64,000 nt of DNA, taken from the NCBI GenBank assembly GCA_938009905.1, contig CALLGK010000027.1:17426-81425 (forward strand), read 5' to 3'. This stretch comes from an uncultured Acidimicrobiales bacterium (lineage in GTDB: Bacteria > Actinomycetota > Acidimicrobiia > Acidimicrobiales > SZUA-35). Under the pieces are notes generated by a model. That model saw only the letters and a program-made list of their open reading frames with translations, was not told the DNA's origin and ran no database searches. Every line of letters starts with the position of its first letter. Position 1 is the stretch's first letter. Shown piece after piece: positions 30,601 through 56,614 of the stretch. The position numbers and the translations under genes were made by a program.

Positions 30601-33600
30601 CAATCACGGTGCAATCGCCAAGATCGTGGGTCGTGCCGGGAGCTTCGAAGCACGTGGTGATGTGCTCACTCACGGCCTTCTCGATGCCTGACTCTTCAAA
30701 CGGAGCACCCGTGAAGGCCTGTGCACTCGAGCTTGCCTGCGTCTTTGGGGCGCCAGTCTGTGAATCATTGCCCCTGACGGTTGCTGTGTTGGTCAACGTC
30801 GAGTCGGCTCCGGCGTCCTGGATGAGCACCTCGAATGCGAACTTGCCTTCGCCCTGAGCACCCCATCCGCCAACCTGGTTGCCGTAGGTACAGGTGATTG
30901 CCTGGCCAGCGACCGAACAAGAACCCTGAGACGGCTCGAGCGTGAATCCGACGAACGACATCGTCGCAGGCAGCACATCGGTCACCGTCACATCGTGGAT
31001 CGCATCCAGCGAGGAGCCCACCACCTTCGGATTGATCTGGAACTCGACAGTTTGGCCATTTGCCGTGATGTCCGACGGACCATCGGTGTTGATCTTTGAG
31101 ATAGCAAGCTGCGGCTCGACGATGTAGACGGCATCTGCGTGAGCAAGGCGAGGCTTCCCGTTGACATCCACGAATTCGATAACAGAGGCGTCGAAGTCAT
31201 TCTTGAAGTCGTTGAGAGCCGTGGAATCGCCACCGGTGATGGCAGCATCATCGGTGAAATCAAGGTTGCACCAGCCCAACGGGACGATGGTGTCGTCTGC
31301 ACCGAAGGCGGGACCGTTCGTGCAGCTGGGGGTCGGAGGTTGCCCGGTGCCATCCCAGTCTCCACGGGCCCGAGCGGCATACACAAACAGCTCTTGATCA
31401 GCCGCCTGCGCCGTCGGGTCGTCCTTCACCACCACCTGGAAGTTGAGGTTGATGCGCGAAGCGAATGCATTGCCGACCGTGTTGAGCGTCGTCGACTCCC
31501 ATGGAACATTGCCAGAGGTGCGAACCCGGAAGTGGGTGACGTCACCGTAGATCGGCGTTCCGTCCGCCATCGTGCCGGTTTCGAACGCAGTCAAGTCGCC
31601 GCTTTCGGCATCAACCCACGTACCAGCGTCGCCGTTGCAGTCGACGCTGTTGATACCAACCGCGTTCCTAATACCGCCAATGTTGGCCACCTCGATCACG
31701 TAGTCGAGTTCCGCGACGTCGGTACGAACCGTCGGAACGGAGGTGGGGTGCCACACTGAGGTGTGTCCGCCTTCAACGCTCGTCAGAACTTGAGCGATCG
31801 GAGATGCTGGTGCGTCTGCGTACCCACCCACCGTTGATCGGTTGATGGTGTAGGTACGAGCGTTCGCGTTGCTAGACGTTGGGAGCCCAACATCCGACAC
31901 CGGGAATGACCCCGGCATGCCAATCACCGACTGGTGCGTCGTGTCGACAGCCACGCAGAGGTGAATTGGAGACGAGAACGAATTGGCGTTCGACCTGGTC
32001 GTGATCGTATGCACACCGGAAATGATCGTCAGAACGTTGCCGCGAGGTGTCTGGCCATCGCCATCCCAGCGAGTCGAATTCTCATTGACTCCGTCAGCAC
32101 CGTTGGTGACGACAGTGCCGGTACCACCACGGGTGGTATGCCGGGTGTCGTAGGTACGCCACGTTCGGCCCTCGACGTCGGTGAACTCAACCTCTTGATA
32201 TGGGCCGTTCTGATAGTGGATGTAGTGACGCATCGAACGGCCCGGCTCGCCAGGGGGCGAGGTGGGGAATTCATATGGCGAATTGTTCGATACGCCTGCA
32301 AACCCACTGCCCGGCTCGGAAATCTCCGCTAACGAACCGTTCGTGCCGTGAATGAGAATCGGATCGACCTCAACCTGTCCCTGCATAACCTCAGCGTCGG
32401 TACCGGTAATGGCATTCACGATGATTCGAGGAACAGGCTTCGCCTGCAACTGATTTTCTGGAGCCCAGAACGCGACCTGTCCGGAGACCAAGGTGCTGTT
32501 ATTCGGACTCAAGTCAGCATTCTGCGGCGCAATATTGGACGTGTCCTGACCGGTGATGTCGATCTTCACCAACGGATACGCGACGCCACCGGACGCACCT
32601 GACAGATCCGTACACGTCCACGTGCCCACGTTGGTCTGCCCAACAGGTGTGGTCGAAGGGACACCGGCCGTGATGCCAAACGGATACGCGCCATCGCCGT
32701 CATAGCCACCACACGGCACACGGTTCAATCCAGTAGCTGAGAGCATCTGTGCCGGCGTGGCCAGCGACGTTCCGGGGACAGCATCGAAGAAGTGATCCCA
32801 GAATTCGAGGTCGATCGAGTCGTCCATCGGCTCAGAACCCTTCAGACCCCCGGCCGGCTCCAGGCGAAGGTTCCAGACGAACAGGCGACCGTTGGTTACA
32901 CCGTCAGCTCCGAGCACATCCCAGTACATCTCGTCTGGCTCGAAAGCGATGATGTCACCCGAGTCGGCGTCCTTGATCGGTTCACCCTTTACCCAGTCGC
33001 CGGCTGGGCGGGCCGACACAACCGTCGTGATCGGATTCGACACAACCGGGGCGAGCTGATCGGTTTCGAGCGACGCTGAGACGTTGAGGGGCGTATCGTC
33101 GAGCAGGCCCTTCACCAAGGCGCGAGGGTGAATGGCACCATTGGAGCCTTGATGCTCGGCATCGGTGGTACACACCAAATCTCGGCCGTCGTTGCCGGTA
33201 ATCGATGACGAGCCATCGTCGAGGCAACCGGAAGGCACGCCAGACGCTGTTGTGGCGTCTTCCAACCACTCGACACCCTCAGGAAGCGTCATCCGGATTG
33301 TGGTCGTTGTTCCGTCGGCCTCGTTGACGTTCCAATCGATGCGATATTGCACTTGGTCGTAGGTGCGAACGACGCCGTTGTTTGCGTTCAGATCGAGGCC
33401 TGGCGTGTGTCCACCAACTCCATCGTCCAGCGGATCAGCACCCGAGAACGCCGCCGTGCCATCGAAGTCAACAGACAACACGATCTCGTTCTGCTGCTGA
33501 GCTGAAACAGCAACCGGCACCGACAGCGGCGCGATGAGACCATAAGACGCGACGGCTAGAAGCTTCCTTGATCGCCTTCTGGATTTGCTTCGGGTGTTGT

Positions 33601-33613
33601 GTCGACCAATCAC
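27644..33613 (-). CDS. Giant sortase-anchored surface protein (~1989 aa): DUF11-like repeats, SdrD/Cna-B-like domain, LAFTG sorting signal
   Basis: C-terminus PSLAFTGGEAG + hydrophobic stretch + RRRRLTA; four ~155-aa repeats starting (I/V)DIEKDTNG...TWTYVVxNTG...CD(V/I)DGDGV(L/M)D; GGVVWDDVDRDGIQDPGE...TDANGTYLFEDVPPGMYRI B-type domain; start set at GTG 33613 (GGAG 8 nt upstream, then RRRSRKLLAVASYGLIAPLSVPVAVSA signal peptide); the ORF-track start at 33688 is the alternative. Confidence 0.85.
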   Translation of the reverse strand: MIGRHNTRSKSRRRSRKLLAVASYGLIAPLSVPVAVSAQQQNEIVLSVDFDGTAAFSGADPLDDGVGGHTPGLDLNANNGVVRTYDQVQYRIDWNVNEADGTTTTIRMTLPEGVEWLEDATTASGVPSGCLDDGSSSITGNDGRDLVCTTDAEHQGSNGAIHPRALVKGLLDDTPLNVSASLETDQLAPVVSNPITTVVSARPAGDWVKGEPIKDADSGDIIAFEPDEMYWDVLGADGVTNGRLFVWNLRLEPAGGLKGSEPMDDSIDLEFWDHFFDAVPGTSLATPAQMLSATGLNRVPCGGYDGDGAYPFGITAGVPSTTPVGQTNVGTWTCTDLSGASGGVAYPLVKIDITGQDTSNIAPQNADLSPNNSTLVSGQVAFWAPENQLQAKPVPRIIVNAITGTDAEVMQGQVEVDPILIHGTNGSLAEISEPGSGFAGVSNNSPYEFPTSPPGEPGRSMRHYIHYQNGPYQEVEFTDVEGRTWRTYDTRHTTRGGTGTVVTNGADGVNENSTRWDGDGQTPRGNVLTIISGVHTITTRSNANSFSSPIHLCVAVDTTHQSVIGMPGSFPVSDVGLPTSSNANARTYTINRSTVGGYADAPASPIAQVLTSVEGGHTSVWHPTSVPTVRTDVAELDYVIEVANIGGIRNAVGINSVDCNGDAGTWVDAESGDLTAFETGTMADGTPIYGDVTHFRVRTSGNVPWESTTLNTVGNAFASRINLNFQVVVKDDPTAQAADQELFVYAARARGDWDGTGQPPTPSCTNGPAFGADDTIVPLGWCNLDFTDDAAITGGDSTALNDFKNDFDASVIEFVDVNGKPRLAHADAVYIVEPQLAISKINTDGPSDITANGQTVEFQINPKVVGSSLDAIHDVTVTDVLPATMSFVGFTLEPSQGSCSVAGQAITCTYGNQVGGWGAQGEGKFAFEVLIQDAGADSTLTNTATVRGNDSQTGAPKTQASSSAQAFTGAPFEESGIEKAVSEHITTCFEAPGTTHDLGDCTVIAVDGAMVFTLDVENEGNVDLENYRVIDVLPHLADATEPAAAGHPVTGVALTGDGRTPPSLFTGDLNFLGAVAPAGATILYTADLATTISRDPAVADSGTTWCDSPAGGTAVAAGLAPAAGTNPCPTDPSEVTGVHVDLGTLDKGATALIEVHLETVGATCGDIWTNNFGARTSGLLLPIRSNDVSVMAGFCDPAIDIEKDTNGLDADEPTGATIVAGDPVTWTYVVENTGDVALADATVGDSDPAVTPNCDVDGDGVLDDTNIVPLLVPGDEVTCEATGVAQAGQYMNNSTVSGNPVLPDFSDPAVDPADPSTWPTDPATYTEPLNPVTGEPALEDPSAEDPSHYFGIDPEPSVDIEKDTNGAQSDDAPGNPIVAGAAVTWTYVVANTGTVALTDATVTDVDSTGTSVAVVCDIDGDGVMDATNVIPLLIPGGSVTCESTGVAGPGPYSNNASVSGNMTLPTVDCVCDPTDASTWPTDRADYAEYADPVTGEPVTVQDEDPSNYVGVEPSVDIEKDTNGAQSDEAPGENIAAGDPVTWTYVVTNTGATALLDAAVVDSDPAVVVDCDIDGDGVMDGTNVIPFMAVGGSVTCEGTGIAAPGPYMNTATVSGAPALPDFTDPDLDPSVDPSDPTTWPADPAGYVTPTDPDGNPVGPVTDADDSHYTGVGFEAGIDIEKDTNGVQSDTAPGETILAGDAVTWTYVVVNTGNTALANATVADSDAAVTVDCDVDGDGVLDGTNVIPFLAVGGSVSCEGTGTAVEGAYKNTATVSGDPITPDFSNPALDPSVDPSDPSTWPTDPSAYVPTMGPDGEPLASVDDADDSHYTGTPPTASVGGVVWDDVDRDGIQDPGESTHAGAIVELLDENGNPVLDQNGKPIIATTDANGTYLFEDVPPGMYRIRITAPDGTILTPGNGGDDDVDGGGVTAPFVIDPGDDIRGIDAGLVAAPPSLAFTGGEAGRWFASSALLMVLGGLMVLGTRRRRLTA
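28130..30019 (-). repeat. Four tandem in-frame coding repeats (~468-480 bp each) inside the surface-protein gene
   Basis: Repeat starts (revcomp of ...gtccttctc(a/g)atgtc...) at ~30019, ~29540, ~29072, ~28592; protein units share DIEKDTNG, TWTYVV.NTG, DGDGV, SVTCE, WP(T/A)DP. Confidence 0.85.
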
Positions 33614-34040
33614 GTGGATGGCTCCAGTTCGAATGAGGGACTTCGTTGGGCAAGAATTCGTGGAGAACTCGAGGACCACGAGACCCATCGACGTGAAGGC
33701 CGACTCTCTTCACCCTGTTGAGGCAGGGTGCTGCTACCACTTGATTGTCGATCGGGACTCTCACGCACCAACAAGGAGCGCAGTCACCAGCACGCCGTTC
33801 GACACGTTCCGAACGGACACCGCTCGACAATGCGTCTCGGTTAGCGAGTTCTCACGTGACTGGAGGTCGCTGACACAACGTCCGGTAATTCCCACGACAG
33901 CGTCGGGCCTCGAGGAATGTTCGCTCTTCAGGGAGCGGGAGCGAAAGGCCGTTCGGCCTCCCCCAAACTGAGGCGGGTTCAAGTCGACAGCGCGCTGCTC
34001 GACCTACATCAACAGCAACGCGATGCCCAAAACCTCTAGC

Positions 34041-34793
34041 TCAGGGGCACGAGCTCTCGACCGCCGTAATGAGCCCGCCATCGGTCGACGGTGTTGCAAT
34101 CCGTGAGACCGTCAACCCGACGTCAGACGCGGCCTCAGCCGTACGAGGTCCGATGGCGACAGCCGGTGGCACCTCGGCTTCACCGAGTCGTTCTGACAGA
34201 ACCGCCACAAGCCGCCGAGCGATCGACGGCGAGGTGAGCAGAATCAGATCACTAGATACGACACGTTCGACGAGTGCGTCATCGTGTTCTGGCACGATCG
34301 AGCGATACGCCGTCACGCGCTCCACCGTGAACCCGCGGGCCTCGATGGCGTCGACAAGGTCATCTGAGGCCAGCTCGGCCAATGGCGCAAGGACTGGTCG
34401 ATCCGACAGCTCAATCGGGACGGTTGCACCGAGGTCAGCCGCCGTCGCCACGGCGGGAACGAACGGTGTTGGGAACCCGGCAGCAACAACGGCAGACGCC
34501 GTTGCCGTCCCGACCGCACATGTGGCAACGTGGTCAGGCCAGGGCTGTTCGCCCATCGCGCGACGAACGGCGTTCACCGCATTCACCGATGTGAACGCCA
34601 CCAAAGCGAAGTTGCTCAGCCGTGCGACCGATGCCGCAAGTGCTGCCCCTTCATCACGCGGAGCGACGACCTCGGCGAGCGGAAAGCCGACGACGTCGAA
34701 CCCTGCTGCTTCGAGCTGCGCAGTAAGTGAGCCAGCTTGGGCCACCGGCCGACACACAACGACAGTTGCACGGCCGGCGCTGCTCGCTGGCAT
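34041..34793 (-). CDS. hemD: Uroporphyrinogen-III synthase
   Basis: 250-aa Ala/Val-rich two-lobed protein immediately after hemC with 1-nt stop/start overlap; pattern VVCRPVAQAGSLTAQLEAAGFDVVGFPL... fits HemD family (weakly conserved family, so call rests partly on context). Confidence 0.75.
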   Translation of the reverse strand: MPASSAGRATVVVCRPVAQAGSLTAQLEAAGFDVVGFPLAEVVAPRDEGAALAASVARLSNFALVAFTSVNAVNAVRRAMGEQPWPDHVATCAVGTATASAVVAAGFPTPFVPAVATAADLGATVPIELSDRPVLAPLAELASDDLVDAIEARGFTVERVTAYRSIVPEHDDALVERVVSSDLILLTSPSIARRLVAVLSERLGEAEVPPAVAIGPRTAEAASDVGLTVSRIATPSTDGGLITAVESSCP

Positions 34794-35686
34794 CAGCTCA
34801 ACCCGAGCTGCACCCGCAACTGGCGGGCAGCGTCGGCACCGAGATCAGCTGGTTCGGCCATGCTGCGAGGGCCCTCCACCTCAACCCGCCCGAGTTGGGT
34901 TTCGTCTGGCGATGCGAGCACGGCGGTAAGCACGATCTGCTCACCGACGAATCGAGCGTGGGCACCAGCCGGCAAGTCGCAATCGCCACCGAGTTCGATG
35001 AGGAAGCCGCGCTCGGCAGTGACCAACGCGCGGGTGGGCGCGTGGTCAAGCGCAGCCATGCGCTGTACGAGCTGGTCATCGCCCGTCCGACACTCAACGG
35101 CCAGCGCCCCTTGACCAATCTGGGGCACCATCACGTCAACGTCGAGCACATCAACAACGGGAAGTTCGAGGTTGAGCCGGTCAAGGGCGGCCGCCGCCAT
35201 CACAATGGCATCAAAGTCGTCGGCCTTCGACAACCGGGTCGCGATGTTGCCGCGCAGCCCAGCAAAGTTCAGCCCCGGCTGCGCGTGGGCAAGCTGGACA
35301 CGCCTCCGGTTCGAGCCGGTTGCAATCGTGGCGCCGTCGGCGAGGTCGGCGAGCCTGCTGCCAACCAGCACGTCGCGCGGGTCACCACGCTCAGGAATGG
35401 CAGCAAGTGTGAGCCCGTCAGGAGTTACCGCTTGAAGGTCCTTGGCGGAGTGGACGGCGATGTCGGCGTGCTCTTCGAGCACCAGCTCTTGAATCTCTTT
35501 ACTGAAGGCTCCCTTGCCACCGAGCTCGGAGATCGGAAGATCAAGTCGCTTGTCCGCAAAGGTCGCCGTGTCAATGAAGGCGACCGTCACGGTCGGATCG
35601 AGGGCCGTCAGCAGCGACGCCACGTGATGGGCCTGCCACATCGCCAACGGACTGTTGCGCGTCGCGATTCGGAGCTCGGCTGCCAT
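34793..35686 (-). CDS. hemC: Hydroxymethylbilane synthase (porphobilinogen deaminase)
   Basis: LRIATRNSPLAMWQAHHV..., RGNIATRL, ...GGDCDLPAGAHA motifs. Confidence 0.9.
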   Translation of the reverse strand: MAAELRIATRNSPLAMWQAHHVASLLTALDPTVTVAFIDTATFADKRLDLPISELGGKGAFSKEIQELVLEEHADIAVHSAKDLQAVTPDGLTLAAIPERGDPRDVLVGSRLADLADGATIATGSNRRRVQLAHAQPGLNFAGLRGNIATRLSKADDFDAIVMAAAALDRLNLELPVVDVLDVDVMVPQIGQGALAVECRTGDDQLVQRMAALDHAPTRALVTAERGFLIELGGDCDLPAGAHARFVGEQIVLTAVLASPDETQLGRVEVEGPRSMAEPADLGADAARQLRVQLGLS

Positions 35687-35695
35687 GACCAGGCG

Positions 35696-36952
35696 CTACA
35701 GATCGAAGAGATCGCGAAGCGACTCGGCGAGGCGATCGCCTCGAGCCGTGCCGGCAGTATCACGAAGCCGCGTTGCTGGCTCGTGAAGAATCTTCGCGAC
35801 AACCGCCTTGCTAAGCGCTTCTGCGGCCGCCCGAGCCTCGGGATCGAGATCGGCGAATCGAGAAGCTTGCTTGTCGATCTCGTCGATTCGAACGGCATCG
35901 GCCCAGCGATACATCGAACCAAGAAGCGGTGATACCTCTTGGGCGCTCAGCTGTTGCCGTAGACCGTCGAGGCCCTCGTCGACGACACGTTCGGCGTCAG
36001 CGACGGCCTTCTGTCGTTCTTCAAGGCCGCGATTGGCGAACGCCTGCAGGTCGGCGAGAACCAGCATCGAAATGCCGTCGAGATCAGCGACAGCCGGATC
36101 GACATCGCGGGGCACGGCAAGATCGAGGATGAGCAGCGGCGACGTGCGGTGCGCAACGGCCTGCTCCACACGATCGAGCTCGAGAACTCGGTTGGTGGCG
36201 CCCGTGGCCGAGATCACCATGTCGACGTTGGCCAGTTCGTCGGCGAACCGATCGAACGGAATCGTGCTGGCACCAAGTGAGTCGGCGAGTTCTGTTGCCC
36301 GACTCTCGGTGCGGTTCGACACGACAATGTCGATGTCTGCGGAGCGGTCGAGCGCCTGCGCAACGCCGGTTCCTACTTCGCCGGCACCGACGAGGAGCAC
36401 CCGCTTGCCATCGAGATCACTAATTTGTTCGCGAACGAGGCTTACAGCCGAGTGCGACAGGGATGCAGTGCGACGGCCAATGACCGTTTCGGTCCTGACT
36501 CGCTTACCGCTCTTGATGGCGTGCTCGAAGAGCGGGTCGAGCAAGCGCTGACAGGCGCCCTCGGTTCGTGCTGCTTCCCACGCCACCTTGAGCTGCCCGA
36601 GAATCTCGTGCTCGCCCAAGACCGCTGAGTCGAGGCCAGCCGCTACCTGGAAGAGGTGTCGGGTCGCCGTCTCGTTGTCGTGCACGTAGACGTACGGGAC
36701 GAAGTCATCAACATCGACACCAGTTGCGGTGGACATTGCGTCACGCAGGTTGGCGTAGCCATCGTGGAATCGCTCGACGTGAGCAAACACCTCAACCCGG
36801 TTACAAGTTGAGAGAACCACAACCTCATTCACGTGGTCGCCCTCGACGAATACCGTCAACGCCTTTGGCAGACGGTCGCCGGCGAGACTCACTCGTTCGA
36901 GCACATCAAGCGGTGCTGAGCGGTGGTTGATGCCGAAGGCGATGAGCGTCAT
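35696..36952 (-). CDS. hemA: Glutamyl-tRNA reductase
   Basis: FGINHRSAPLDVLERVS, VVLSTCNRVEVF catalytic Cys motif, NAD-binding VLLVGAGEVG. Confidence 0.9.
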   Translation of the reverse strand: MTLIAFGINHRSAPLDVLERVSLAGDRLPKALTVFVEGDHVNEVVVLSTCNRVEVFAHVERFHDGYANLRDAMSTATGVDVDDFVPYVYVHDNETATRHLFQVAAGLDSAVLGEHEILGQLKVAWEAARTEGACQRLLDPLFEHAIKSGKRVRTETVIGRRTASLSHSAVSLVREQISDLDGKRVLLVGAGEVGTGVAQALDRSADIDIVVSNRTESRATELADSLGASTIPFDRFADELANVDMVISATGATNRVLELDRVEQAVAHRTSPLLILDLAVPRDVDPAVADLDGISMLVLADLQAFANRGLEERQKAVADAERVVDEGLDGLRQQLSAQEVSPLLGSMYRWADAVRIDEIDKQASRFADLDPEARAAAEALSKAVVAKILHEPATRLRDTAGTARGDRLAESLRDLFDL

Positions 36953-37106
36953 GAGTGCGCTGCGGTGGTCGTGGAGACGAGGGTCATGGAGAAGAACGAG
37001 TCGGTGCTACATCCATTCAACCGCATGGGCGGCCAGAACAGTCCCAAGTGTGTTGTATCACCCCGAACAATTTCGAGTCGCGAGACCGTGAACCTCGTCA
37101 CGTCTG

Positions 37107-37841
37107 TCATGACGCATCATCAGTCGAGTCGGGAGCGTGCTCTGCTCCAAGCGGCACGCCGGTGCCACTTGCGGCCGCGGTGCTGCGCTGCTGGTAAAAG
37201 CTGAGAATCTGAAGCTCCGTTGCCAGATCGACACCGCGTACTTGCACGTGCGGTGGCGTGGTGATCTGCACCGGCGTGAAGTTGAGCAGCGATGCGAGCC
37301 CTGCACCGATGAGTTCGTCGGCTGCGGCTTGGGCCGCGGAGGCTGGGGTGGCGATGACCCCGACCGCGATTTCGTCTCGATCGACCACTTTCGAGAGGTC
37401 GTCGACGTGCTCGACAACAACGCCGGCCACCGAGGTCCCAACCACATCGGGGTCAACATCAACGAGAGCCCGGACCGGGAAGCCCTGTGTCGTGAGGCCC
37501 TCGTAGTTCGCGAGCGCTCGGCCAAGGTTGCCGACGCCGACAATGATGACCGGCCAGGCTTGATTCAGGCCGAGAACCACGCTGATTTCATGTACGAGGT
37601 ACTTGACGTCGTAGCCCACACCACGGGTTCCCGTGATGCCGATACCGGCCAAATCTCGTCGCAGCGTCGCAGGATTGACGGCCGCGATCTCGGCCAGGGC
37701 CTCAGAAGAGACGCTTGCTTCGCCATCACCGGCCAGACCAAGCAACCCTTGTAAGTAGACGGGTAGCCGACCGACCGTCGCGTCTGACACTCGTGGCGTC
37801 GTTTGATCGGGCGTCGGGTCGACCCCGTCGGCTGCACTCAC
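37107..37841 (-). CDS. rex: Redox-sensing transcriptional repressor Rex
   Basis: GRLPVYLQGL winged-helix N-terminus, Rossmann VIIVGVGNLGRALANY; located upstream of hemA as in other actinobacteria. Confidence 0.85.
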   Translation of the reverse strand: MSAADGVDPTPDQTTPRVSDATVGRLPVYLQGLLGLAGDGEASVSSEALAEIAAVNPATLRRDLAGIGITGTRGVGYDVKYLVHEISVVLGLNQAWPVIIVGVGNLGRALANYEGLTTQGFPVRALVDVDPDVVGTSVAGVVVEHVDDLSKVVDRDEIAVGVIATPASAAQAAADELIGAGLASLLNFTPVQITTPPHVQVRGVDLATELQILSFYQQRSTAAASGTGVPLGAEHAPDSTDDAS

Positions 37842-42565: not shown

Positions 42566-43036
42566 TCAACCGAACCGTGACGCGAAGCCGATCCGAAGAG
42601 CCGGCCTAAAGAACTGTTCAACCCACACGTACATCGAACCCAAGATCCGATCGAGCTCGTTGGCATCGGCCGCGTGTCGGTCATCAATACGACCCTGCAG
42701 GAAGATCGCTCCTTCTTCGCCGATCGCCAGGCTTGCGCCATAGAGACCGAGGTTGCGCTTCAGCAGGTGGGCGTAAAACTCCGCCTCGTTCTCAATCGGC
42801 GCTGGCATGAGATACGTCTCGTAGCTGAGCGTTCGCTGCTGCAGATCGAAGCGAATCGTGAACACGTCTTTCTCTTCGCCCAACAGGCGAACAAACCACC
42901 GACGACGCTCCTCGGGTAAGCGATCAACAGCATCGACGATCGGGTTCTCTTCGAGCTGTTCGGCAAACCACTGATCGATGAATGCCTCGATGGCATCGAG
43001 CTCGTCGACGGTTCTTGGCGCCGCCGTTGGATCCAT
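42566..43036 (-). CDS. YbjN-like domain protein (conserved partner of mshA in actinobacteria)
   Basis: 156-aa acidic protein; pattern ...VFTIRFDLQQRTLSYETYLMPAP...FYAHLLKRNLGLYGASLAI... fits YbjN/T3SS-chaperone-like fold; immediately downstream of mshA. Confidence 0.65.
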   Translation of the reverse strand: MDPTAAPRTVDELDAIEAFIDQWFAEQLEENPIVDAVDRLPEERRRWFVRLLGEEKDVFTIRFDLQQRTLSYETYLMPAPIENEAEFYAHLLKRNLGLYGASLAIGEEGAIFLQGRIDDRHAADANELDRILGSMYVWVEQFFRPALRIGFASRFG

Positions 43037-43039: not shown

Positions 43040-44296
43040 CTAGATGTCGCTTCCGACCCGAGCTCGGGGAGCCTCGCAGGGCACAGGGCGGCGCTGGGCC
43101 AGCTCGCCGTAGAGATGCCGCAGGCGGGCAGAAGCGGTCGACCATGCGTAGGTGCGAGCTCGGCCGGCGGCGGAGACAGAGAGTCGCCTCGCCAGCACAG
43201 GATCGCCCAAGATGGCATCGGTCCAGGCTGCGTATTCGTCTGGGTCGCGGCTCTCAACGAGGTAACCGGTGCGTCCGTGCTCAACGAGGGTGAGAAGACC
43301 ACCAACCGCTGATGCCACAACGGGCACGCCGCACGCCGCAGCTTCGAGCGCAACAAGCCCGAATGACTCAGAGCGACTGGGCACCAAGCACACATCGGCG
43401 GCCCGGTAGAACGTCGAGAGCAAGTGGTGCGGCTGGGGCGGAACGAACCGGACTCGATCTTCGAGGCCTTCGTCAGAGATCATCTGGCGAATGCGATCAA
43501 CCTCGGTTGAGCCGCCTTGGCCTGAGGCCCCGCCGACGATCCAGAGCCGAGCGTCGTCGCGTTCGAGCTTGGCCAACGTGCCAACAGCAACGTCGACGCC
43601 CTTGAGGGGCTGGATCCGGCCGACAAACAACAGCAATGGTCGGTCGTCGGTTTGCAGCGCCCAGCGGGCACCGGCCTGGTTACCAGGTGAGAAGTAGGCG
43701 TGATCGACGCCGGGTGGCACGATCTCGATGCGGTCTGGATCGGCGTCGTAGTACTGCTCGAGCTGTTCGGCTTCAGCTGAACAGTTCGCGAGCACGGCAT
43801 CAGCACAGGCCATCACTTCGGCCTCGGCTCGGGCCCGACGTTCTGGCTCAGGATCGCCCGTCATGGCTTTCACTCGCGCCAACGTGTGGAACGTGGTGAC
43901 AAGGGGAACGCCGAGTCGACGCTTCAACATCTGACCGGCAACGCCAGAGAGCCAGTAGTTGGCGTGCAAAACATCTGGCTTGAACTCGGCAAGATCGATC
44001 GCCACTTGGTCGGCGAAGTCGGTAACCAGCGGCTCGAGTTCTTCCTTTGAAGCTTCAAACGGACCGGCGGTGACGTGCACCACTTCGAAGCCCGGCTCGA
44101 CCAAGACCCGCTCGGGAAGATCGGCTCTCCAACGGCGCACATAGACCCGGCACTGCACGCCAGCCTGGGCCAACGACGTAACGAGTTCGCGCACGTAGAC
44201 ATTCATGCCACCGCCGTCGCCAGTGCCCGGTTGGGCCAGCGGAGAGGTGTGAAGTGAGAGAACTGCGACTCGACGCACGAAGGGTTCCAACCTCAA
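43040..44296 (-). CDS. mshA: D-inositol-3-phosphate glycosyltransferase (GT4, MshA-type)
   Basis: RRVAVLSLHTSPLAQPGTGDGGGMNVYVRELV N-terminal signature of MshA; C-terminal GT4 E..FGLVALEAAACGVPVVA motif. Confidence 0.8.
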   Translation of the reverse strand: MRLEPFVRRVAVLSLHTSPLAQPGTGDGGGMNVYVRELVTSLAQAGVQCRVYVRRWRADLPERVLVEPGFEVVHVTAGPFEASKEELEPLVTDFADQVAIDLAEFKPDVLHANYWLSGVAGQMLKRRLGVPLVTTFHTLARVKAMTGDPEPERRARAEAEVMACADAVLANCSAEAEQLEQYYDADPDRIEIVPPGVDHAYFSPGNQAGARWALQTDDRPLLLFVGRIQPLKGVDVAVGTLAKLERDDARLWIVGGASGQGGSTEVDRIRQMISDEGLEDRVRFVPPQPHHLLSTFYRAADVCLVPSRSESFGLVALEAAACGVPVVASAVGGLLTLVEHGRTGYLVESRDPDEYAAWTDAILGDPVLARRLSVSAAGRARTYAWSTASARLRHLYGELAQRRPVPCEAPRARVGSDI

Positions 44297-44709
44297 TCCT
44301 CCTCTGTCTGTTCCACGCCGGTCACCACGCCACTGTCGTCGGTCTCGGGCGACGAGACAAAACTGCGGTAGATGCCGAGCAACAAACCCTTCTGTTCACT
44401 GGTGAGCTCCGCGGCCCTGCGAATCGCTGCCTCGACGTCTGTCGGCTCGGGGGCGCGCTCTGCATCGAGGATGCCGGCTTGCACGTAGAGCGTCTCGGAT
44501 GAGATCTCGAGCGCCTTTGCGATCTGCTGCAGAATCTCCGCCGATGGTCGACGAAGCCCGCGCTCAATCTGGCTCAGGTACGGGTTTGAGACCCCAGCCA
44601 TCTCGGCCAGGCGGCGAACGGAAAGCTCAGCAAGCCGGCGTTGATCCTTGATGAAGGCGCCGAGGTTGTTGCTGTCGTCTGTTTGCTCCGAATCCACGAG
44701 GCGCGTCAA
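44293..44709 (-). CDS. XRE-family helix-turn-helix transcriptional regulator
   Basis: LSVRRLAEMAGVSNPYLSQIERGLRRPSAEILQQIAKAL HTH_3 pattern; TTGA-type overlaps with both neighbours. Confidence 0.8.
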   Translation of the reverse strand: MTRLVDSEQTDDSNNLGAFIKDQRRLAELSVRRLAEMAGVSNPYLSQIERGLRRPSAEILQQIAKALEISSETLYVQAGILDAERAPEPTDVEAAIRRAAELTSEQKGLLLGIYRSFVSSPETDDSGVVTGVEQTEED

Positions 44710-45251
44710 CCCAGGATCGAGTCGACGCTGGCCTCTCCGTCGCGGTAACGCCGACCGATTTCTGACTGAATGGCGTCGATGCGCTCGTGGAGTTGTCGGC
44801 GAACGGAGGAGAGTTCGACTTCGAAGGCACGAATCCGCTCGAACAGCTCGCGCAGATCGCCGTCGCTGAGGGTCTCGATGTTTGACAACACCGTCGGCGA
44901 GGCCATGGTGTCGAGCGACTTGACCATCTCGGCAGCAACCTCACCTGGTTCGCCAACGCGGACAGCTCGGGCCCCTGGCGTGGAGCCTCCGCCCGCTGGC
45001 GCATCGCTGAGGATCTCGGGCAGGTCGAACAGCAAGGCGGTGAGGTCGCCGTCTGCTGGCTCAGCACCAGCTCGACGAGCCGTTTCGTGCCCGACGATGT
45101 CGAGGCGCCCCTGCGAAACGCGACGAACCAGCGAGATGTCACTCTCGACGTCGCTGCATTCGACGCGAATGCGTCGCAGCTGATCGAGCGGACGGGTGGT
45201 GAGGCCGGTGAGGATCTCAGGGTCGAGGAGGCGTTCGAGCTGTGGAATCAC
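44706..45251 (-). CDS. RsiG-like coiled-coil protein with two ExxxSxxRxxx(Q/H)xxxD motifs
   Basis: ESDISLVRRVSQGRLD (45099..45146) and EVELSSVRRQLHERID (44775..44822); start set at GTG 45251 because the longer ORF overlaps the upstream membrane-protein gene; no strong SD. Confidence 0.55.
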   Translation of the reverse strand: MIPQLERLLDPEILTGLTTRPLDQLRRIRVECSDVESDISLVRRVSQGRLDIVGHETARRAGAEPADGDLTALLFDLPEILSDAPAGGGSTPGARAVRVGEPGEVAAEMVKSLDTMASPTVLSNIETLSDGDLRELFERIRAFEVELSSVRRQLHERIDAIQSEIGRRYRDGEASVDSILG

Positions 45252-45291: not shown

Positions 45292-46200
45292 CTAGACCAG
45301 GAGGAGCCATAGCGGGGCGGCGACGAGATAGCTGTCGAGGCGACGAAGCGCAGGCGCCCAGGCGTCACCCCGCGGCAACACAGCCGAGCCTGCGATCTGA
45401 CCGACCGGACAGCAAATGGCCGTGAGGGCGGCGAACAGTGGAAGGGTCGTGGCGTCGAAGGGCTCTGGCAGAACAAGGAAGAGTCCAAAGGCCACAACGC
45501 CGAGGCACACAATGCCGGCGATGGGTCCCTCGACCGCATTGGCCGAACCCGTTCCAACAAGGAAGTCGCCCATCTCATATGCGCTCACCAGCACAACGAG
45601 CGCGAACGCAGCCTCGGGGAACCACCCCGCGAGCGCTCCAAGCGAGCCAGCAGCTAGGCCAACGGGAAGCGACGAACGGATCGTTACCTCGGTCATGCGG
45701 ATGACCGACTCTCGGCGTTCTGCCGCGTTCCGAACCCGATGGCGAACGCCAAAAGCGCAATACGCCAGCGCGCCGATGGCGCACAGCGAGACGGCAACGC
45801 CAAGACCGAAGGTGCCAGCGGCCGCACCAGCAGCGGTGCCTCCGGCGAGCAGACCAGACACGCGTCGATCGGCAAGGGTGTGGCGAGTCCACGCCTGGCC
45901 TGTCTGCAGCGCGGCGACGACAGCGACTACTCCAGCAACGGCAACAACGGCAAGGGGCGACACCCGGAGCGCAGCAATCACCGCGGCAAACCACAAGACG
46001 CCGAGCGTGATCTTCGGACCGTCGGTGCGGTACGGGACGCTCAGCCGTTGTTGACGCCAGCGGGCCTCACGACTCTTCGTGCGTCGAGCGAGCTCGGCCG
46101 ATCGACGGGCCCGCATCTGGCCGACCACATTGCGCGAGCCTGGGCCATCGCGCGAGGGCTCATCGACCGTGCGGCCGGAGCGGGCCGGCCCAGTGGTCAT
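45292..46200 (-). CDS. Polytopic membrane protein, distant CdsA (CTP_transf_1)-like
   Basis: 302 aa, basic N-terminus then ~7 hydrophobic helices; C-terminal ...ALRRLDSYLVAAPLW resembles the DRxDSxxxxAP end of phosphatidate cytidylyltransferases, other CdsA motifs not seen. Confidence 0.45.
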   Translation of the reverse strand: MTTGPARSGRTVDEPSRDGPGSRNVVGQMRARRSAELARRTKSREARWRQQRLSVPYRTDGPKITLGVLWFAAVIAALRVSPLAVVAVAGVVAVVAALQTGQAWTRHTLADRRVSGLLAGGTAAGAAAGTFGLGVAVSLCAIGALAYCAFGVRHRVRNAAERRESVIRMTEVTIRSSLPVGLAAGSLGALAGWFPEAAFALVVLVSAYEMGDFLVGTGSANAVEGPIAGIVCLGVVAFGLFLVLPEPFDATTLPLFAALTAICCPVGQIAGSAVLPRGDAWAPALRRLDSYLVAAPLWLLLV

Positions 46201-46433
46201 CCGCCAGAGACCGGCGGCAACACGGCCACCTCGTCGGCGTCACCGACGGGATCGGTGCCAGTGGCCGGCGAGCCGTTGAGCCACACTTTCGAGCCAGCGA
46301 CGATGACCGAAAACGCCTCGCCGTATTGGCTTTTGGCCTGTTCAAGCACCTCGTCAACGGTCGCACCATCGATTGTTGTCGATCCGACACCGGCGATTTC
46401 CCGGGCTTGGGCGAACATGCGCAAAACGGCCAC
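46197..46433 (-). CDS. moaD: MoaD/ThiS-family sulfur-carrier protein
   Basis: 78 aa, ...FAQAREIAG..., ends ...VAVLPPVSGG (C-terminal Gly-Gly). Confidence 0.75.
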   Translation of the reverse strand: MAVLRMFAQAREIAGVGSTTIDGATVDEVLEQAKSQYGEAFSVIVAGSKVWLNGSPATGTDPVGDADEVAVLPPVSGG

Positions 46434-49312: not shown

Positions 49313-49726
49313 GTGCCGAAGAAAACCATCGAACTCGACACTCCGTTTCGCAAGGGTGAGCAGGTGCTCACGACCCGCGATCTTCGGGGTGCGCCCGAAG
49401 GAACTGTCGGCAAGATCAAACTCATCAACGGCCTCAGTGACGTCTCGGGCGGCACGCCGTGGCTTCGCTACTGGGTCCGGTTCGAAGACGGCTCCCTCCT
49501 CGGACACGTCGATCACGAAGACCTCGTCCGCCCCGACATGGTTGAGGCGTGGCAGGCCCGCATCGAAGAGCGAGCGGCGGCAGCCGAAGCCGCAGCAAAC
49601 GCCGAGGCCGCACCGGCCGCTGATGCCGGAGCTCCTGCAGCTGGTGGTGGCGGTGGCATCGAGTCGATGATTCCCGCCGCCCTCCTCGAACGCAGTCGAG
49701 CGGCCAAAGCCCGTCTTCTGGGATGA
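49313..49726 (+). CDS. Hypothetical small soluble protein with C-terminal IPAALLERSRAAKARL motif
   Basis: 137 aa, GTG start; beta-rich N-domain (GTVGKIKLINGL...WLRYWVRFEDGSLLGHVDHEDL), Ala-rich linker, C-terminal motif shared with cytochrome subunits; stop overlaps ATG of next gene (ATGA). Confidence 0.6.
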   Translation: MPKKTIELDTPFRKGEQVLTTRDLRGAPEGTVGKIKLINGLSDVSGGTPWLRYWVRFEDGSLLGHVDHEDLVRPDMVEAWQARIEERAAAAEAAANAEAAPAADAGAPAAGGGGGIESMIPAALLERSRAAKARLLG

Positions 49727-50799
49727 GCCATCTTCCCAAGCTTGCGATCCTGGCGGCGTTTGCCGTCGGCATCGCTGGGTGCGGGCAAGTTGAGGACTAC
49801 GCGGGTGTCGCCGCCCCCAATGCCGACGTCGGGTCTGACGAGGGTTCCGCAGCCGGCGGCCAGAGCGATGGCGATACCGACGCTGACGACGAGGGCGGCA
49901 GCACAACGGCAGACGCCGACTCAGGCGACGAATCCGACGGCGCGATGTCAGACAGTGACAACGCTGATGGGGGCGATGCTGGCAGTGACGATGCCGACAG
50001 CACTGATGCCCCAGGCGAAAGCAGCGACGACACAAACGCTGGCAACGACAGCGACGACAACAGTTCTGAGCCGGCAGACGATCCCGAGCCAGAACCAGAC
50101 ACCGTGCCGATGCTCAACGTGCAGGTGGTCAACACCTACCCCCACGACAGTGGGGCGTTCACCCAGGGTTTGACGGTCATCGATGGCGTGCTGCTTGAGA
50201 GCACCGGCCTCTACGGATCGTCGTCACGACGTCGAGTCGGCCTCACGAACGGTGAAGTATCAACCAGCGTGCCACTTGACGAATCGCTGTTTGGCGCCGG
50301 CCTCACGGTTGTCGATGGCTCAACGGTGATCCAGCTGACCTGGCGCGAGGGTGTGGCCATCGTGAGCGACGTGCTCACACTCCAAGAATTCGACCGCTTC
50401 AACTACAGCGGTGAGGGGTGGGGCCTGTGTTCCGATGACGACCGACTCATCATGAGCGACGGTTCGTCAACCCTCATCGTGCGCGACCCGATGAGCTTCG
50501 CCCAAGCCGGCACCATCGACGTGACTCGCGACGGACAGCCCGTCTCCAAACTCAATGAACTCGAGTGTGTTGGCACCGACATTTGGGCCAACGTGTGGCT
50601 CACCAACGAAATCGTGCGCATCGACGGCACAACCGGCGAAGTGACCGGCGTTGCTGATCTCACGGCTCTTGTCCCTCCAGGGCCACTCGGCGACGAAGAC
50701 GTGCTCAATGGAATTGCTTACGACCCCGCGACCAACGCGTTCTACGTCACCGGCAAGAATTGGGACCTGCTCTACGAAGTCAGCTTCAGCGATTCGTGA
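49723..50799 (+). CDS. Lipoprotein glutaminyl-peptide cyclotransferase (beta-propeller type) with ~95-aa acidic D/S/G-rich linker
   Basis: Lipobox LAAFAVGIAGC; YPHDSGAFTQGL...LLESTGLYGSSSRRRV...  typical bacterial/plant QC; low-complexity acidic region 49819..50100. Confidence 0.85.
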   Translation: MSHLPKLAILAAFAVGIAGCGQVEDYAGVAAPNADVGSDEGSAAGGQSDGDTDADDEGGSTTADADSGDESDGAMSDSDNADGGDAGSDDADSTDAPGESSDDTNAGNDSDDNSSEPADDPEPEPDTVPMLNVQVVNTYPHDSGAFTQGLTVIDGVLLESTGLYGSSSRRRVGLTNGEVSTSVPLDESLFGAGLTVVDGSTVIQLTWREGVAIVSDVLTLQEFDRFNYSGEGWGLCSDDDRLIMSDGSSTLIVRDPMSFAQAGTIDVTRDGQPVSKLNELECVGTDIWANVWLTNEIVRIDGTTGEVTGVADLTALVPPGPLGDEDVLNGIAYDPATNAFYVTGKNWDLLYEVSFSDS

Positions 50800-51740
50800 T
50801 TCCGTCCACACGTGTTTGGAGGCGGCTGGTTCCCTGGGTTGTCGCGTTCGCACTGGCAGGGGCGTCGTGCACCACGGCCCCAACCGATCCGATCGCCAGT
50901 GACAGCAGCTCACCAACAACACTTGCGTCAGCCACGACGGAGCCTCCCGAAACAGAATCCGACACCAACACAAGCGCTCCAACGAGCTCGTCGCCCTCCG
51001 ATGATGAGATCGAACAGCCAGAGATCCAGAAGCTCGAGGGCAACTACGGCGTGCAGATCGTGTCGGCCTGGCCCCACGACGCAACGGCCTACACCCAGGG
51101 GCTCGAACTGCACGATGGCCGGTTGCTCGAATCAACAGGTCTCTATGGCGAGAGCGAACGACGCTGGGTCGACCCGGTTTCTGGTGAGGTCCTTGAACGC
51201 ACCGAGATCAGCAGCGACTTCTTTGGGGAAGGCATCACGTTGGTTGACGGCACGGTGTACCAACTCACGTGGTTGTCCGGTCAGCTACTGATCGCCGAGG
51301 GAGACAATCTCGGCGAGGTGGGATCCGACACCTACACCGGAGAGGGCTGGGGGCTGTGCGCCTTAAATGACCAGTTCGTGATGTCGAACGGGTCAGACCA
51401 GCTCGCCTTCCGATCGATCCCAGACTTCGACGTTGTTCGAACCGTCAGCGTGATCGATGCCGAGGGCAACCCGGTTGGGGCCCTCAACGAGCTGGAGTGC
51501 GTCGGTGATCAGGTGCTCGCCAACATCTATGGCCTCGACTCGATCGTCGTGATCGACGCAGCAACCGGAGCGGTCGATGCGGTGATCGACGCATCGGCGT
51601 TGCGACCACCGACGGCACCCGCCGATGACTTCGACTACGTGCTCAACGGCATTGCGTACGACGAGACGACAGGCAACTACCTGCTCACCGGCAAGTTGTG
51701 GGACACCCTCTACGAAGTCACGTTTGTGCCGTCTTCTTAA
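50796..51740 (+). CDS. Second lipoprotein glutaminyl-peptide cyclotransferase paralogue
   Basis: GTG 50796 overlaps upstream stop (GTGA); lipobox FALAGASC; WPHDATAYTQGLELHDGRLLESTGLYGESERRWV. Confidence 0.85.
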   Translation: MIPSTRVWRRLVPWVVAFALAGASCTTAPTDPIASDSSSPTTLASATTEPPETESDTNTSAPTSSSPSDDEIEQPEIQKLEGNYGVQIVSAWPHDATAYTQGLELHDGRLLESTGLYGESERRWVDPVSGEVLERTEISSDFFGEGITLVDGTVYQLTWLSGQLLIAEGDNLGEVGSDTYTGEGWGLCALNDQFVMSNGSDQLAFRSIPDFDVVRTVSVIDAEGNPVGALNELECVGDQVLANIYGLDSIVVIDAATGAVDAVIDASALRPPTAPADDFDYVLNGIAYDETTGNYLLTGKLWDTLYEVTFVPSS

Positions 51741-55746: not shown

Positions 55747-56088
55747 ATGACTGAGGCCGGCACTGAACACGCGCGCATCGCGTTTCCTGCGACCGCGGAG
55801 TTCGCCTCGGTCGGGCGCGTTGCCGTGGCCGGCATCGCATTGCGGCTAGGCATCGACGTCGGCCAAGTCGAAAGCCTTCGCCTCGCCGTCAGTACGTCGA
55901 TCGAAGCGCTCGCTGGCGACGGCACGGTCACGTTGCTGGCAACGTGGAACGACGATTCGTTCGAGCTTGAACTGACCAACCCCGATGCACCAGGGCTCGA
56001 CGCCAGCGAGCTCGCCGGCCGACTCGACGACCTTGGTATTCCCGTCACCGTCTCGCCGAACAAGGTGACGCTGCTCCTCAGTCGTTAG
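55747..56088 (+). CDS. Small protein resembling the N-terminal part of RsbW-type anti-sigma/HATPase proteins
   Basis: 113 aa; ...ARIAFPATAEFASVGRVAVAGIALRLG...LRLAVSTSIEAL resembles HATPase_c_2 N-terminus but too short for ATP-binding boxes. Confidence 0.3.
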   Translation: MTEAGTEHARIAFPATAEFASVGRVAVAGIALRLGIDVGQVESLRLAVSTSIEALAGDGTVTLLATWNDDSFELELTNPDAPGLDASELAGRLDDLGIPVTVSPNKVTLLLSR

Positions 56089-56108: not shown

Positions 56109-56573
56109 CTAGCCGCTAGAGCCAAAGCCGTCGGCACCACGATCGTCTGGCGCCGCGGGCAGTTCATCAACGACGGTGAAGCCCAGCGCCGGAACCGGCA
56201 AGACAAGGAGCTGCGCGATGCGTTGCCCTCGTTCGATGTCGACAGCCGCAGATCCGTGATTCACCAGGATCACCACAAGCTCACCCCGATAGCCGGAATC
56301 GATCAGGCCAGGGCCGTTGGCCACGGTCAGCCCATGCTTGACCGCAAGACCCGATCGCGGCAGCACGAGTCCGCACATCCCTTCGGGAACCGCGATGGCA
56401 AACCCCGTTGGAATCATTGCCTGTTCACCAGGCGCAAACCGATGCGAGATGCGAGCAGGCAGGTCGGCAGCTGCATCACCAGCCCGCTGTCGGCGAGGAC
56501 CCTCAAGATCAGGATCGAGGCGCACGATCGGTACATCAACGGTTGGTAGGCCGTTCGATCCATTCGCAGTCAC
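56109..56573 (-). CDS. dut: dUTP diphosphatase
   Basis: ...GDAAADL..., LVLPRSGLAVKHGL, GLIDSGYRGEL dUTPase motifs. Confidence 0.9.
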   Translation of the reverse strand: MTANGSNGLPTVDVPIVRLDPDLEGPRRQRAGDAAADLPARISHRFAPGEQAMIPTGFAIAVPEGMCGLVLPRSGLAVKHGLTVANGPGLIDSGYRGELVVILVNHGSAAVDIERGQRIAQLLVLPVPALGFTVVDELPAAPDDRGADGFGSSG

Positions 56574-56614
56574 GGGGCGAGCCTAGCGAGCAGTCCCGGG
56601 GCTACTCTGATGCT

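Follow-up and report, generated by a model that had tools for sequence, protein, structure and literature searches.

The locus raises the question whether a small helical protein, encoded beside an XRE-family regulator gene and the mycothiol gene mshA, is an anti-sigma factor of the RsiG family that responds to c-di-GMP and, if so, whether this neighbourhood points to a partner other than the sigma factor WhiG. Within the window, as we call the whole 64-kb stretch of DNA that was analysed, the coding sequence (44706..45251, (-) strand) starts with GTG at 45251, ends with a TGA stop at 44706-44708 and yields a translation of 181 amino acids. Public assemblies contain an identical called 181-aa protein (P0001), and public records label the product as "hypothetical protein"; RsiG is the correct annotation. 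A longer in-frame ORF of 290 aa, reaching back to ATG 45578, was rejected as rsiG because it overlaps the upstream membrane-protein gene and because homologues begin at the GTG.

The first motif, ESDISLVRRVSQGRLD (45099..45146, (-) strand, residues 36-51), is an exact match to the c-di-GMP-type pattern E(x)3S(x)2R(x)3Q(x)3D. The second, EVELSSVRRQLHERID (44775..44822, (-) strand, residues 144-159), carries H155 instead of Q at the base-stacking position. Translation thus confirmed the protein, its coordinates and the two motifs as described in the first-pass annotation. The start codon, which had been marked as a point to check, keeps motif 1 inside the protein: homologues can be aligned with it from the very first residue, L9 being invariant. 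A six-frame translation of the window contains the pattern E...S..R...[QH]...D exactly twice, both times in this protein. Among composition-matched shuffles of its sequence (n=200,000), one motif match was found in 0.06% and two matches in none.

The proposed identity was borne out by profile, alignment and predicted fold. The Pfam model PF22802 (RsiG-like) matched the protein in two stretches with 86.1 bits (cut-off 27, E 1.3e-24), and the same match is precomputed for all 120 homologues among the matches listed; no NCBIfam model matched. RsiG of S. venezuelae (6PFJ_T) aligned collinearly over the full length (E 1.1e-16), and the single-motif RsiG of Rubrobacter was matched, too (E 2.5e-4, residues 17-74). 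The AlphaFold2 model has a mean pLDDT of 83, with values above 90 on both long helices. Helix alpha-1 (45072..45188, (-) strand, residues 22-60, block pLDDT 93-96) is the predicted first arm of a coiled coil and helix alpha-5 (44742..44864, (-) strand, residues 130-170, block pLDDT 96-97) the second. The linker or loop (44943..45071, (-) strand, residues 61-103) comprises a short helix (70-75) and a Gly-rich stretch of low confidence, the pLDDT not reaching 50 for residues 67-69 and 73-90; in the alignment this region corresponds to the loop with which RsiG wraps WhiG and c-di-GMP. The alpha-5 segment shares 12 of 42 residues with the alpha-1 segment, an identity that reads as the trace of an internal duplication.

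The model superposes on the RsiG chains of 6PFV and 6PFJ, and the pairing of the helices was judged by this superposition, not by inter-helix distances. In a Foldseek search of the PDB, the only significant matches were four RsiG chains from 6PFV and 6PFJ (E 4e-5 to 6e-4; TM 0.61-0.66 by query length and 0.72-0.73 by target; identity 34-36%), followed by a next-best match at E 0.14. Profile searches and Foldseek gave no signal of a FlgM-like sequence or fold. A Pfam match to HTH_Cmi2_C (20 bits, cut-off 27) was set aside as coiled-coil noise. The comparison of profile and structure with RsiG that the first-pass annotation had proposed was thus positive at all three levels, sequence, profile and predicted fold, and on these grounds the product of 44706..45251 is a genuine RsiG of the twin-motif type.

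All 120 close homologues (identity 49-81%) among the matches listed have both motifs, and each of them carries H at the stacking position of motif 2. In an alignment of 52 homologues E36, S40, R43, Q47 and D51 of motif 1 and E144, S148, R151, H155 and D159 of motif 2 are invariant. Metagenomes hold a large number of family members (1369 clusters at 50% identity, E up to 1e-3); of the 150 best cluster representatives 136 have both motifs, as have 92 of 93 translated related loci, the exception (L016) being a split match. For the scan of metagenome loci, search patterns were taken from a 10-sequence alignment, a 41-sequence alignment being too diverse. The variable stacking position in this clade is that of motif 2, not of motif 1, and is occupied by H, F, L or Q. 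An exchange of Q for H in the motif is a known tolerated variant, and in the published motif logos the H substitution is seen in motif 1 only (PMC8325347). All named relatives are MAGs of Acidimicrobiales, Acidimicrobiia or Actinomycetota, which fits a family restricted to Actinobacteria; mshA, a WhiB gene and the order rex-hemACD are actinobacterial markers of the window itself. Of four Acidimicrobiales species, three have been described to have twin-motif RsiG proteins, one of these being YM304_37910 of Ilumatobacter coccineus (PMC8325347).

The histidine in motif 2 and the loop could be taken to indicate a coiled-coil protein which retains the RsiG fold, but has lost c-di-GMP binding and is degenerate, structural or engaged in some other role. 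D83, S90 and R95 of the loop are kept, and two residues which contact c-di-GMP in S. venezuelae RsiG, S108 and H110 (PMC7005675), correspond to A86 and G88. We regard such a loss as very improbable. Neither the base-specifying residues R43, D51, R151 and D159 nor the E and S residues vary within the family. For the stacking contact, histidine has been described as a fitting residue (PMC8325347), and c-di-GMP is bound even by single-motif relatives that have no long loop (PMC8325347). Moreover, genes for HD-GYP and receiver-domain proteins adjoin rsiG in some relatives. Of 80 metagenome loci, 19 have a receiver-domain gene after rsiG and 11 an HD-GYP-type gene (HHEMFDGSGYP), which ties the clade to c-di-GMP turnover and supports a role in c-di-GMP signalling.

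We consider it likely, judging from sequence, model and analogy, that the protein is a monomeric twin-motif RsiG acting as a c-di-GMP-armed anti-sigma factor. The structures from S. venezuelae and Rubrobacter suggest that the two long helices (22-60 and 130-170), which carry one motif each, would pair as an antiparallel coiled coil and that both motifs would jointly clamp a dimer of c-di-GMP. Specific contacts would be made by the E, S, R and D residues, with Q47 and H155 stacking on the outer guanines. At high c-di-GMP levels the partner sigma factor would be kept inactive, and a drop in c-di-GMP would release it.

The closest known counterpart is RsiG of S. venezuelae (AmfC, vnz_19430; 6PFJ, 6PFV), the twin-motif monomeric c-di-GMP-armed anti-sigma factor of WhiG. 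The two proteins have in common alpha-1 with motif 1, the loop, alpha-5 with motif 2 and the C-terminal tail RRYR-x-GEA-x-VD-x-L, as well as all E, S, R and D residues of the motifs. S. venezuelae RsiG comprises 215 aa compared to 181 aa here, where its N-terminal tail is absent; Streptomyces RsiG has Q in motif 2 instead of H, and the Gly-rich loop described here lacks equivalents of S108 and H110. The host is a non-sporulating member of the Acidimicrobiales, unlike Streptomyces, and the regulon must therefore differ. The RsiG proteins of Acidimicrobiales reported by Schumacher et al. 2021 (e.g. YM304_37910) share with ours the order and the twin-motif class, a likeness drawn from their description; unlike those named there, the RsiG of the window stems from an uncultured MAG.

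In Rubrobacter radiotolerans, RsiG (7LQ2-7LQ4) is the single-motif homodimeric ancestral form and controls type IV pili via WhiG. It shares with the protein of the window a homologous alpha-1 helix with its motif and a unicellular actinobacterial host. The Rubrobacter RsiG, with its one motif, forms a homodimer, whereas both helices lie in one chain here, which should, by analogy, work as a monomer. Because the host is unicellular, Rubrobacter is a better guide than Streptomyces to the likely output, i.e. pili or motility. Flagellar clusters occur in 41-91% of the species in six basal classes, Acidimicrobiia among them (PMC10746217). In unicellular Acidimicrobiales, genes for motility, pili or chemotaxis are a more likely output than sporulation. 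FlgM, the classical anti-sigma-28 factor, sequesters a sigma-28-family factor via contacts to sigma-2 and sigma-4 (PMC7005675); it does the same job as RsiG with an unrelated fold and without a nucleotide ligand.

Most of the S. venezuelae RsiG residues touching WhiG are identical or conservatively replaced in the protein of the window. Its C-terminal segment IGRRYRDGEASVDSIL (44712..44759, (-) strand, residues 165-180) is the equivalent of the RsiG surface contacting WhiG sigma-4. The sigma-4 contacts R54, R57, I183, Y187, L197 and L198 correspond to R26, R29, I165, Y169, I179 and L180, and the residues I80, V95, L99 and L143 of the sigma-2 pocket to I52, L73, L77 and I125. Of the 12 contact residues mapped, 10 are either retained or exchanged for similar ones (V95, L197 and L143 for L, I and I, similarity being judged pairwise against S. 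venezuelae RsiG); the other two are R58, which is V30 here, and V138, which is T120. R26 and Y169 are invariant across a diverse alignment, and R29, I52, L77, I165 and L180 are nearly so.

No sigma-70-family gene was detected in the 64-kb window, in line with the statement of the first-pass annotation that no whiG-type sigma factor is encoded nearby. Genes of the GGDEF, EAL and HD-GYP types were also absent from the 64-kb window. Searches (tblastn) with approximate WhiG and FliA queries against the window and 97 related loci gave no E value better than 0.3 and so revealed no sigma gene. Promoters of the WhiG/FliA type (T[AC]AA or CTCA, 15-17 nt, GCCGA) were matched 4 and 6 times in the window compared to about 2 expected matches, none of them convincingly placed upstream of a gene. 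The conclusion formerly drawn, that the partner may therefore differ, cannot be upheld. About 1.5 Mb separate rsiG and whiG in S. venezuelae (PMC7005675), and the absence of whiG from the window is thus uninformative; a position apart from whiG is something the two rsiG genes have in common, for the present one within the 64-kb window. In addition, all 134 of 134 rsiG genomes surveyed also carry whiG (PMC7005675), the partner of RsiG belongs to the WhiG2 clade (PMC12871210), and the mostly conserved WhiG contacts likewise speak against an exchange of the partner.

The genes around rsiG form a co-directional string on the (-) strand, headed by a ThiS/MoaD-like gene (46197..46433, Pfam ThiS, E 1e-11), the stop of which overlaps the start of a gene for a conserved membrane protein of 302 aa (45292..46200). 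This membrane protein has no Pfam or NCBIfam match, and its gene ends 40 nt before rsiG begins. Downstream of rsiG follows the XRE-family HTH gene (44293..44709, (-) strand; HTH_3, E 1.8e-14), which encodes 138 aa if read from TTG 44709 and 134 aa from GTG 44697. The next gene is mshA (43040..44296, (-) strand), encoding a D-inositol-3-phosphate glycosyltransferase (TIGR03449 mycothiol_MshA, E 7.9e-117) with a score of 390.6 bits, which is under the equivalog cut-off of 462.5. A YbjN-family gene (42566..43036, (-) strand; Pfam YbjN, E 6.8e-6) comes after mshA.

The stop/start overlaps previously described for rsiG-XRE and XRE-mshA were only partly confirmed. TTG codons that overlap the preceding stops do occur at 44709 and 44296, yet these only mark where the longest ORFs start, and likelier starts lie just past the stops: the XRE start chosen by the gene caller, GTG 44697, is located 8 nt past the rsiG stop, and the likely mshA start, TTG 44290, is located 2 nt past the XRE stop and is preceded at 7 nt by GGAGG. 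The 388-aa mshA of the gene caller was rejected, since it cuts off a conserved N-terminal segment. Under either choice of starts rsiG, XRE and mshA follow one another closely on the same strand, so that an operon is a fair reading of the sequence, and rsiG is probably co-transcribed with the membrane-protein gene, XRE and mshA. Between 42000 and 47200 we found no sigma-70-type promoter and one terminator-like site, which is located outside the gene string; both results are uninformative for an actinobacterium with 62% G+C.

The coupling to XRE and mshA had been considered unusual. It is indeed absent beside rsiG of S. venezuelae, the neighbours of which encode Dtd and an Eis-like acetyltransferase, but it is normal in Acidimicrobiales and in related metagenome contigs. 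The rule in this clade is rsiG, XRE (sometimes missing), mshA and ybjN: all 12 Acidimicrobiales genome loci and 26 of the 27 informative metagenome loci have mshA downstream of rsiG, and XRE is present in 8 of the 12 genome loci and in 48 of 56 informative metagenome loci. In all 12 genome loci rsiG is directly preceded by the gene for a membrane protein, and among relatives in general the upstream neighbour is either a membrane-protein gene or sodX. The fullest form of the locus comprises sodN/sodX, rsiG, a receiver-domain gene, an HD-GYP gene, XRE, mshA and ybjN. The order rsiG-XRE-mshA is therefore best read as a conserved gene order typical of the lineage and not as evidence for a different partner. 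As the RsiG family itself is already described, the position upstream of mshA in this clade is a mildly new point; the text available from Schumacher et al. 2021 (PMC8325347) and from a 2026 preprint seemingly contains no description of the rsiG gene neighbourhood. The size of the family in metagenomes, the variability of stacking in motif 2, the conserved position upstream of XRE/mshA and the receiver/HD-GYP insertions in some relatives are modest additions to the RsiG picture.

The same neighbourhood might be explained by an RsiG-fold c-di-GMP sensor with a switched client, i.e. the XRE protein or another sigma factor instead of or besides a WhiG-type one, by which mshA and mycothiol would come under the control of c-di-GMP. 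The tight packing of rsiG, XRE and mshA on one strand, the retention of their order across RsiG identities of 36-77%, a single ORF containing XRE and MshA in one relative and the lack of a sigma factor in the 64-kb window are consistent with this explanation. However, XRE is missing in 4 of the 12 genome loci with the adjacency of rsiG and mshA retained, which argues against XRE as an obligatory partner. In eight loci rsiG and XRE are separated by about 1.2 kb, and the inserted genes leave XRE with mshA and not with rsiG. The synteny is not limited to these genes: the YbjN-family and ThiS/MoaD-like genes are syntenic in related loci, as is a block of 10 kb from YgjP to proC including the housekeeping genes proC, histidine phosphatase and YgjP. 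Because the whole block is syntenic, adjacency alone says little in favour of a functional connection. Together with the mostly conserved WhiG contacts and the normal distance of rsiG from whiG, this makes a switched client unlikely.

That synteny, the unrelated neighbours of rsiG in S. venezuelae and the change between a membrane-protein gene and sodX upstream would also fit an order which was simply inherited, without shared regulation, so that rsiG would have its own promoter and its product would act in trans. This explanation touches the operon reading only and is compatible with the anti-sigma function preferred above. The spacing of 40 nt to the upstream gene and of at most 8 nt between rsiG and XRE speaks against it, as does the lack of a sigma-70-type promoter or terminator signal within the string, itself uninformative at 62% G+C. 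Moreover, divergence of this extent seldom leaves a gene order intact without some constraint. We rate mere inheritance of the order as slightly less probable still than a switched client.

If the neighbourhood reflects shared regulation, c-di-GMP would be linked to the control of mycothiol and redox balance in abundant, mostly uncultured actinobacteria of water and soil. A more far-reaching version, which we regard as a long shot, is that the RsiG switch has been built into a conserved thiol-redox locus of Acidimicrobiia-like actinobacteria, so that c-di-GMP and mycothiol/oxidative-stress homeostasis would be co-regulated, with the XRE protein as a second client of RsiG or as a coupling regulator. 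If true, it would be an output of RsiG and c-di-GMP without earlier description. Without shared regulation, the locus remains of practical use as a genomic marker by which the RsiG switch can be found in Acidimicrobiia.

The rsiG-like gene (44706..45251, minus strand), translated from the GTG at 45251, encodes a protein of 181 amino acids carrying two c-di-GMP-type motifs: motif 1, ESDISLVRRVSQGRLD (45099..45146, minus strand, residues 36-51), and motif 2, EVELSSVRRQLHERID (44775..44822, minus strand, residues 144-159). A six-frame scan of the whole window for E...S..R...[QH]...D gave two matches only, both in this protein. In shuffles of the protein one match occurred in 0.06%, two matches in 0 of 200,000. 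The start codon leaves motif 1 within the protein and does not, as had been considered in the first-pass annotation, cut it off, because public contigs carry an identical called protein of the same length (P0001) and the N-termini of aligned homologues line up from residue 1. A longer in-frame ORF reaching up to 45578 was rejected, as it runs into the upstream gene.

Comparison with RsiG by HMM and by structure, as suggested by the first-pass annotation, was positive. The Pfam family PF22802 ("RsiG-like") matched two stretches of the protein with 86 bits (cut-off 27). Residues 20-180 are collinear with the RsiG of S. venezuelae (chain T of PDB 6PFJ, entered there as "AmfC protein"; E 1.1e-16), and the first helix also matches the single-motif RsiG of Rubrobacter (7LQ2, E 2.5e-4). 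An AlphaFold2 model based on an alignment of 52 homologues (mean pLDDT 83) exhibits two long helices (22-60 and 130-170, pLDDT >90) bearing one motif each, with a Gly-rich loop of low prediction confidence between them. Foldseek against the PDB retrieved four RsiG chains (6PFV, 6PFJ; TM 0.61-0.66 by query and 0.72-0.73 by target, 34-36% identity) and no non-RsiG match below E 0.14. Family membership, both motifs and the predicted fold are thereby established, and the protein had been correctly described as RsiG-like with twin motifs. The two helices share 12 of 42 residues, a remnant of the internal duplication reported for the RsiG family (PMC8325347).

All named relatives are MAGs of Acidimicrobiales, Acidimicrobiia or Actinomycetota. 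Among the matches listed, both motifs are present in 120 of 120 homologues (49-81% identical), the stacking residue being Q in the first motif and H in the second throughout. Searching 1.84 billion cluster representatives with a profile yielded 1369 clusters at E <= 1e-3 and 705 at E <= 1e-10. Twin motifs occur in 136 of the best 150 of these 1369 representatives, the stacking positions of motif 1/motif 2 being Q/H (93), Q/F (24), H/H (12), Q/L (3) or Q/Q (2). Published logos, mostly of Streptomyces, Pseudonocardiaceae and Geodermatophilaceae, show the Q-to-H exchange in motif 1 only (PMC8325347). In the clade studied here the variable motif is motif 2. The variation is minor, H having been judged fit for the stacking contact (PMC8325347) and F being aromatic. 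The protein belongs to a known, structurally characterised family already reported for its taxon: three of four Acidimicrobiales species possess twin-motif RsiGs, and YM304_37910 of Ilumatobacter coccineus is tabulated (Schumacher et al. 2021, PMC8325347).

From the lack of a whiG gene nearby it had been concluded that the partner of the protein may differ. Indeed, no sigma factor gene was found within the window, but the conclusion fails: in S. venezuelae some 1.5 Mb separate rsiG from whiG, and whiG was found in 134 of 134 genomes with rsiG (Gallagher et al. 2020, PMC7005675). The absence of a sigma gene from the window carries no information on the RsiG partner. It is the WhiG2 clade that RsiG follows, and not WhiG1, the flagellar one (Denis et al. 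2026, PMC12871210). We carried the WhiG-contact residues of S. venezuelae RsiG (PMC7005675) over to our protein via the RsiG sequence alignment. The sigma-4 contacts R54, R57, I183, Y187, L197 and L198 correspond to R26, R29, I165, Y169, I179 and L180, and the sigma-2 pocket I80, V95, L99 and L143 to I52, L73, L77 and I125. In an alignment including distant representatives and the Streptomyces protein, no variation is seen at R26 and Y169 and hardly any at R29, I52, L77 and L180. R58 of the sigma-contact region is replaced by V30. Among the c-di-GMP contacts of the loop, S112, R115 and the neighbouring Asp ("Asp106" in PMC7005675, 105 in the indexing used here) are kept as S90, R95 and D83, but S108 and H110 are changed to A86 and G88. 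Conservation of the ligand-reading and of most sigma-contact residues is thus established, and the pattern fits, if indirectly, an unchanged role in holding a WhiG-type sigma factor. By analogy with the solved homologues, the two helices would lie antiparallel as a pair and clamp a dimer of c-di-GMP, and RsiG so loaded would then sequester a WhiG2-clade sigma factor encoded elsewhere. Motility, pili or chemotaxis would be our guess for the regulon, considering the Rubrobacter precedent and the fact that Acidimicrobiia are among six basal classes with flagellar clusters in 41-91% of species (PMC10746217).

The gene is part of a minus-strand string comprising a ThiS-like gene (46433-46197), a multi-pass membrane protein of 302 aa (46200-45292), rsiG, XRE (44709-44293), mshA (44296-43040) and ybjN (43036-42566). 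The stop/start overlaps noted earlier for rsiG, XRE and mshA hold for the longest-ORF starts only, as gene callers place the XRE start 8 nt past the rsiG stop; still, all gaps are 40 nt or less, and the string is likely co-transcribed. For mshA the best start is TTG 44290, 2 nt past the XRE stop and preceded at 7 nt by GGAGG; the public 388-aa call (start M31) loses a conserved N-terminal Gly-rich segment. MshA reaches 390.6 bits on TIGR03449, under the equivalog cut-off of 462.5, and is therefore a divergent MshA. The membrane protein has no match in Pfam or NCBIfam; its C-terminal "...PRGDAWAPALRRLDSY..." presumably bears a loose likeness to the CdsA signature.

Twelve species-level Acidimicrobiales genomes share, for the most part, the arrangement YgjP, histidine phosphatase | ThiS, membrane protein, rsiG, (XRE), mshA, ybjN, proC. 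The membrane protein directly precedes rsiG in 12/12; downstream, mshA is found in 12/12 and XRE in 8/12, and three of the loci have ybjN and proC inverted or in exchanged places. Informative cases among 80 metagenome contigs (RsiG 36-61% identical) gave XRE downstream of rsiG in 48/56 and mshA within 2.6 kb in 26/27. The coupling to XRE and mshA, previously called unusual, is thus typical of the lineage, although neither gene lies within 10 kb of S. venezuelae rsiG, whose neighbours are unrelated. Where extra DNA separates rsiG from XRE (gaps of about 1.2 kb in 8 loci), XRE remains beside mshA, to which it seems more closely tied than to rsiG. In one relative (L004 10557-12371, on a 3.6-Mb contig) an XRE domain and MshA form one 604-aa ORF with a Pro/Arg-rich repetitive linker, either a genuine fusion or a product of misassembly.

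Modest interest attaches to this conserved locus and to its receiver/HD-GYP neighbours in relatives. In the 1.2-kb inserts lie genes for a stand-alone receiver-domain protein (PF00072) and for a protein of HD-GYP type (PF13487, HD_5, HHEMFDGSGYP). Such genes stand between rsiG and XRE at locus L095 (6537-6878 and 6878-7615) and likewise at L031, L035, L036, L058, L060, L065, L066, L073, L078 and L092. A receiver gene follows rsiG in at least 19 and an HD-GYP gene in at least 11 of the 80 metagenome loci, both counts being minima on account of the many short contigs. A c-di-GMP phosphodiesterase directly after rsiG is separate evidence, from gene context, in support of a c-di-GMP role in the clade, and recalls RmdB, the Streptomyces phosphodiesterase with a local action on RsiG-WhiG (PMC13232838). 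Many relatives carry a divergent sodN/sodX pair (nickel superoxide dismutase/S26 maturation peptidase) directly upstream of rsiG (L095 5111-5884, minus strand, and 5436-5936, plus strand; also L052, L058, L061, L066-L068, L071, L072, L074, L078, L086-L088 and L094). Neither module is found in the window. In certain database entries for "RsiG" that are about 300 aa long (P0160, P0166, P0191), the sequence of this S26 peptidase and RsiG make up one called product, representing either true fusions or gene-calling run-ons. A regulatory tie of RsiG to XRE, mshA and redox genes seems improbable.

Further features of the window include a 2015-aa secreted protein with a terminal membrane anchor and at least four near-identical repeats of about 130 aa (27644-33688, minus strand), inserted between hemB (26639-27622) and hemD-hemC-hemA-rex (34041-37841), and two tandem glutaminyl-cyclase-like (Glu_cyclase_2) lipoprotein paralogues with long acidic low-complexity N-termini (49723-51740, plus strand). 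An RNase_T-family exonuclease (56408-57169, plus strand) is oligoribonuclease (Orn)-like by resemblance only; Orn is a housekeeping enzyme clearing pGpG after c-di-GMP hydrolysis. A 113-aa protein (55747-56088, plus strand) has no match in Pfam; its N-terminus (ARIAFPATAEFASVGRVAVAG...) may be similar to that of anti-sigma kinases of the RsbW type. Finally, a WhiB-family protein of 143 aa (58498-58929, plus strand) carries a C-terminal basic RKRRRGRPPKNP stretch resembling the AT-hook of regulators of the WhiB7 type.
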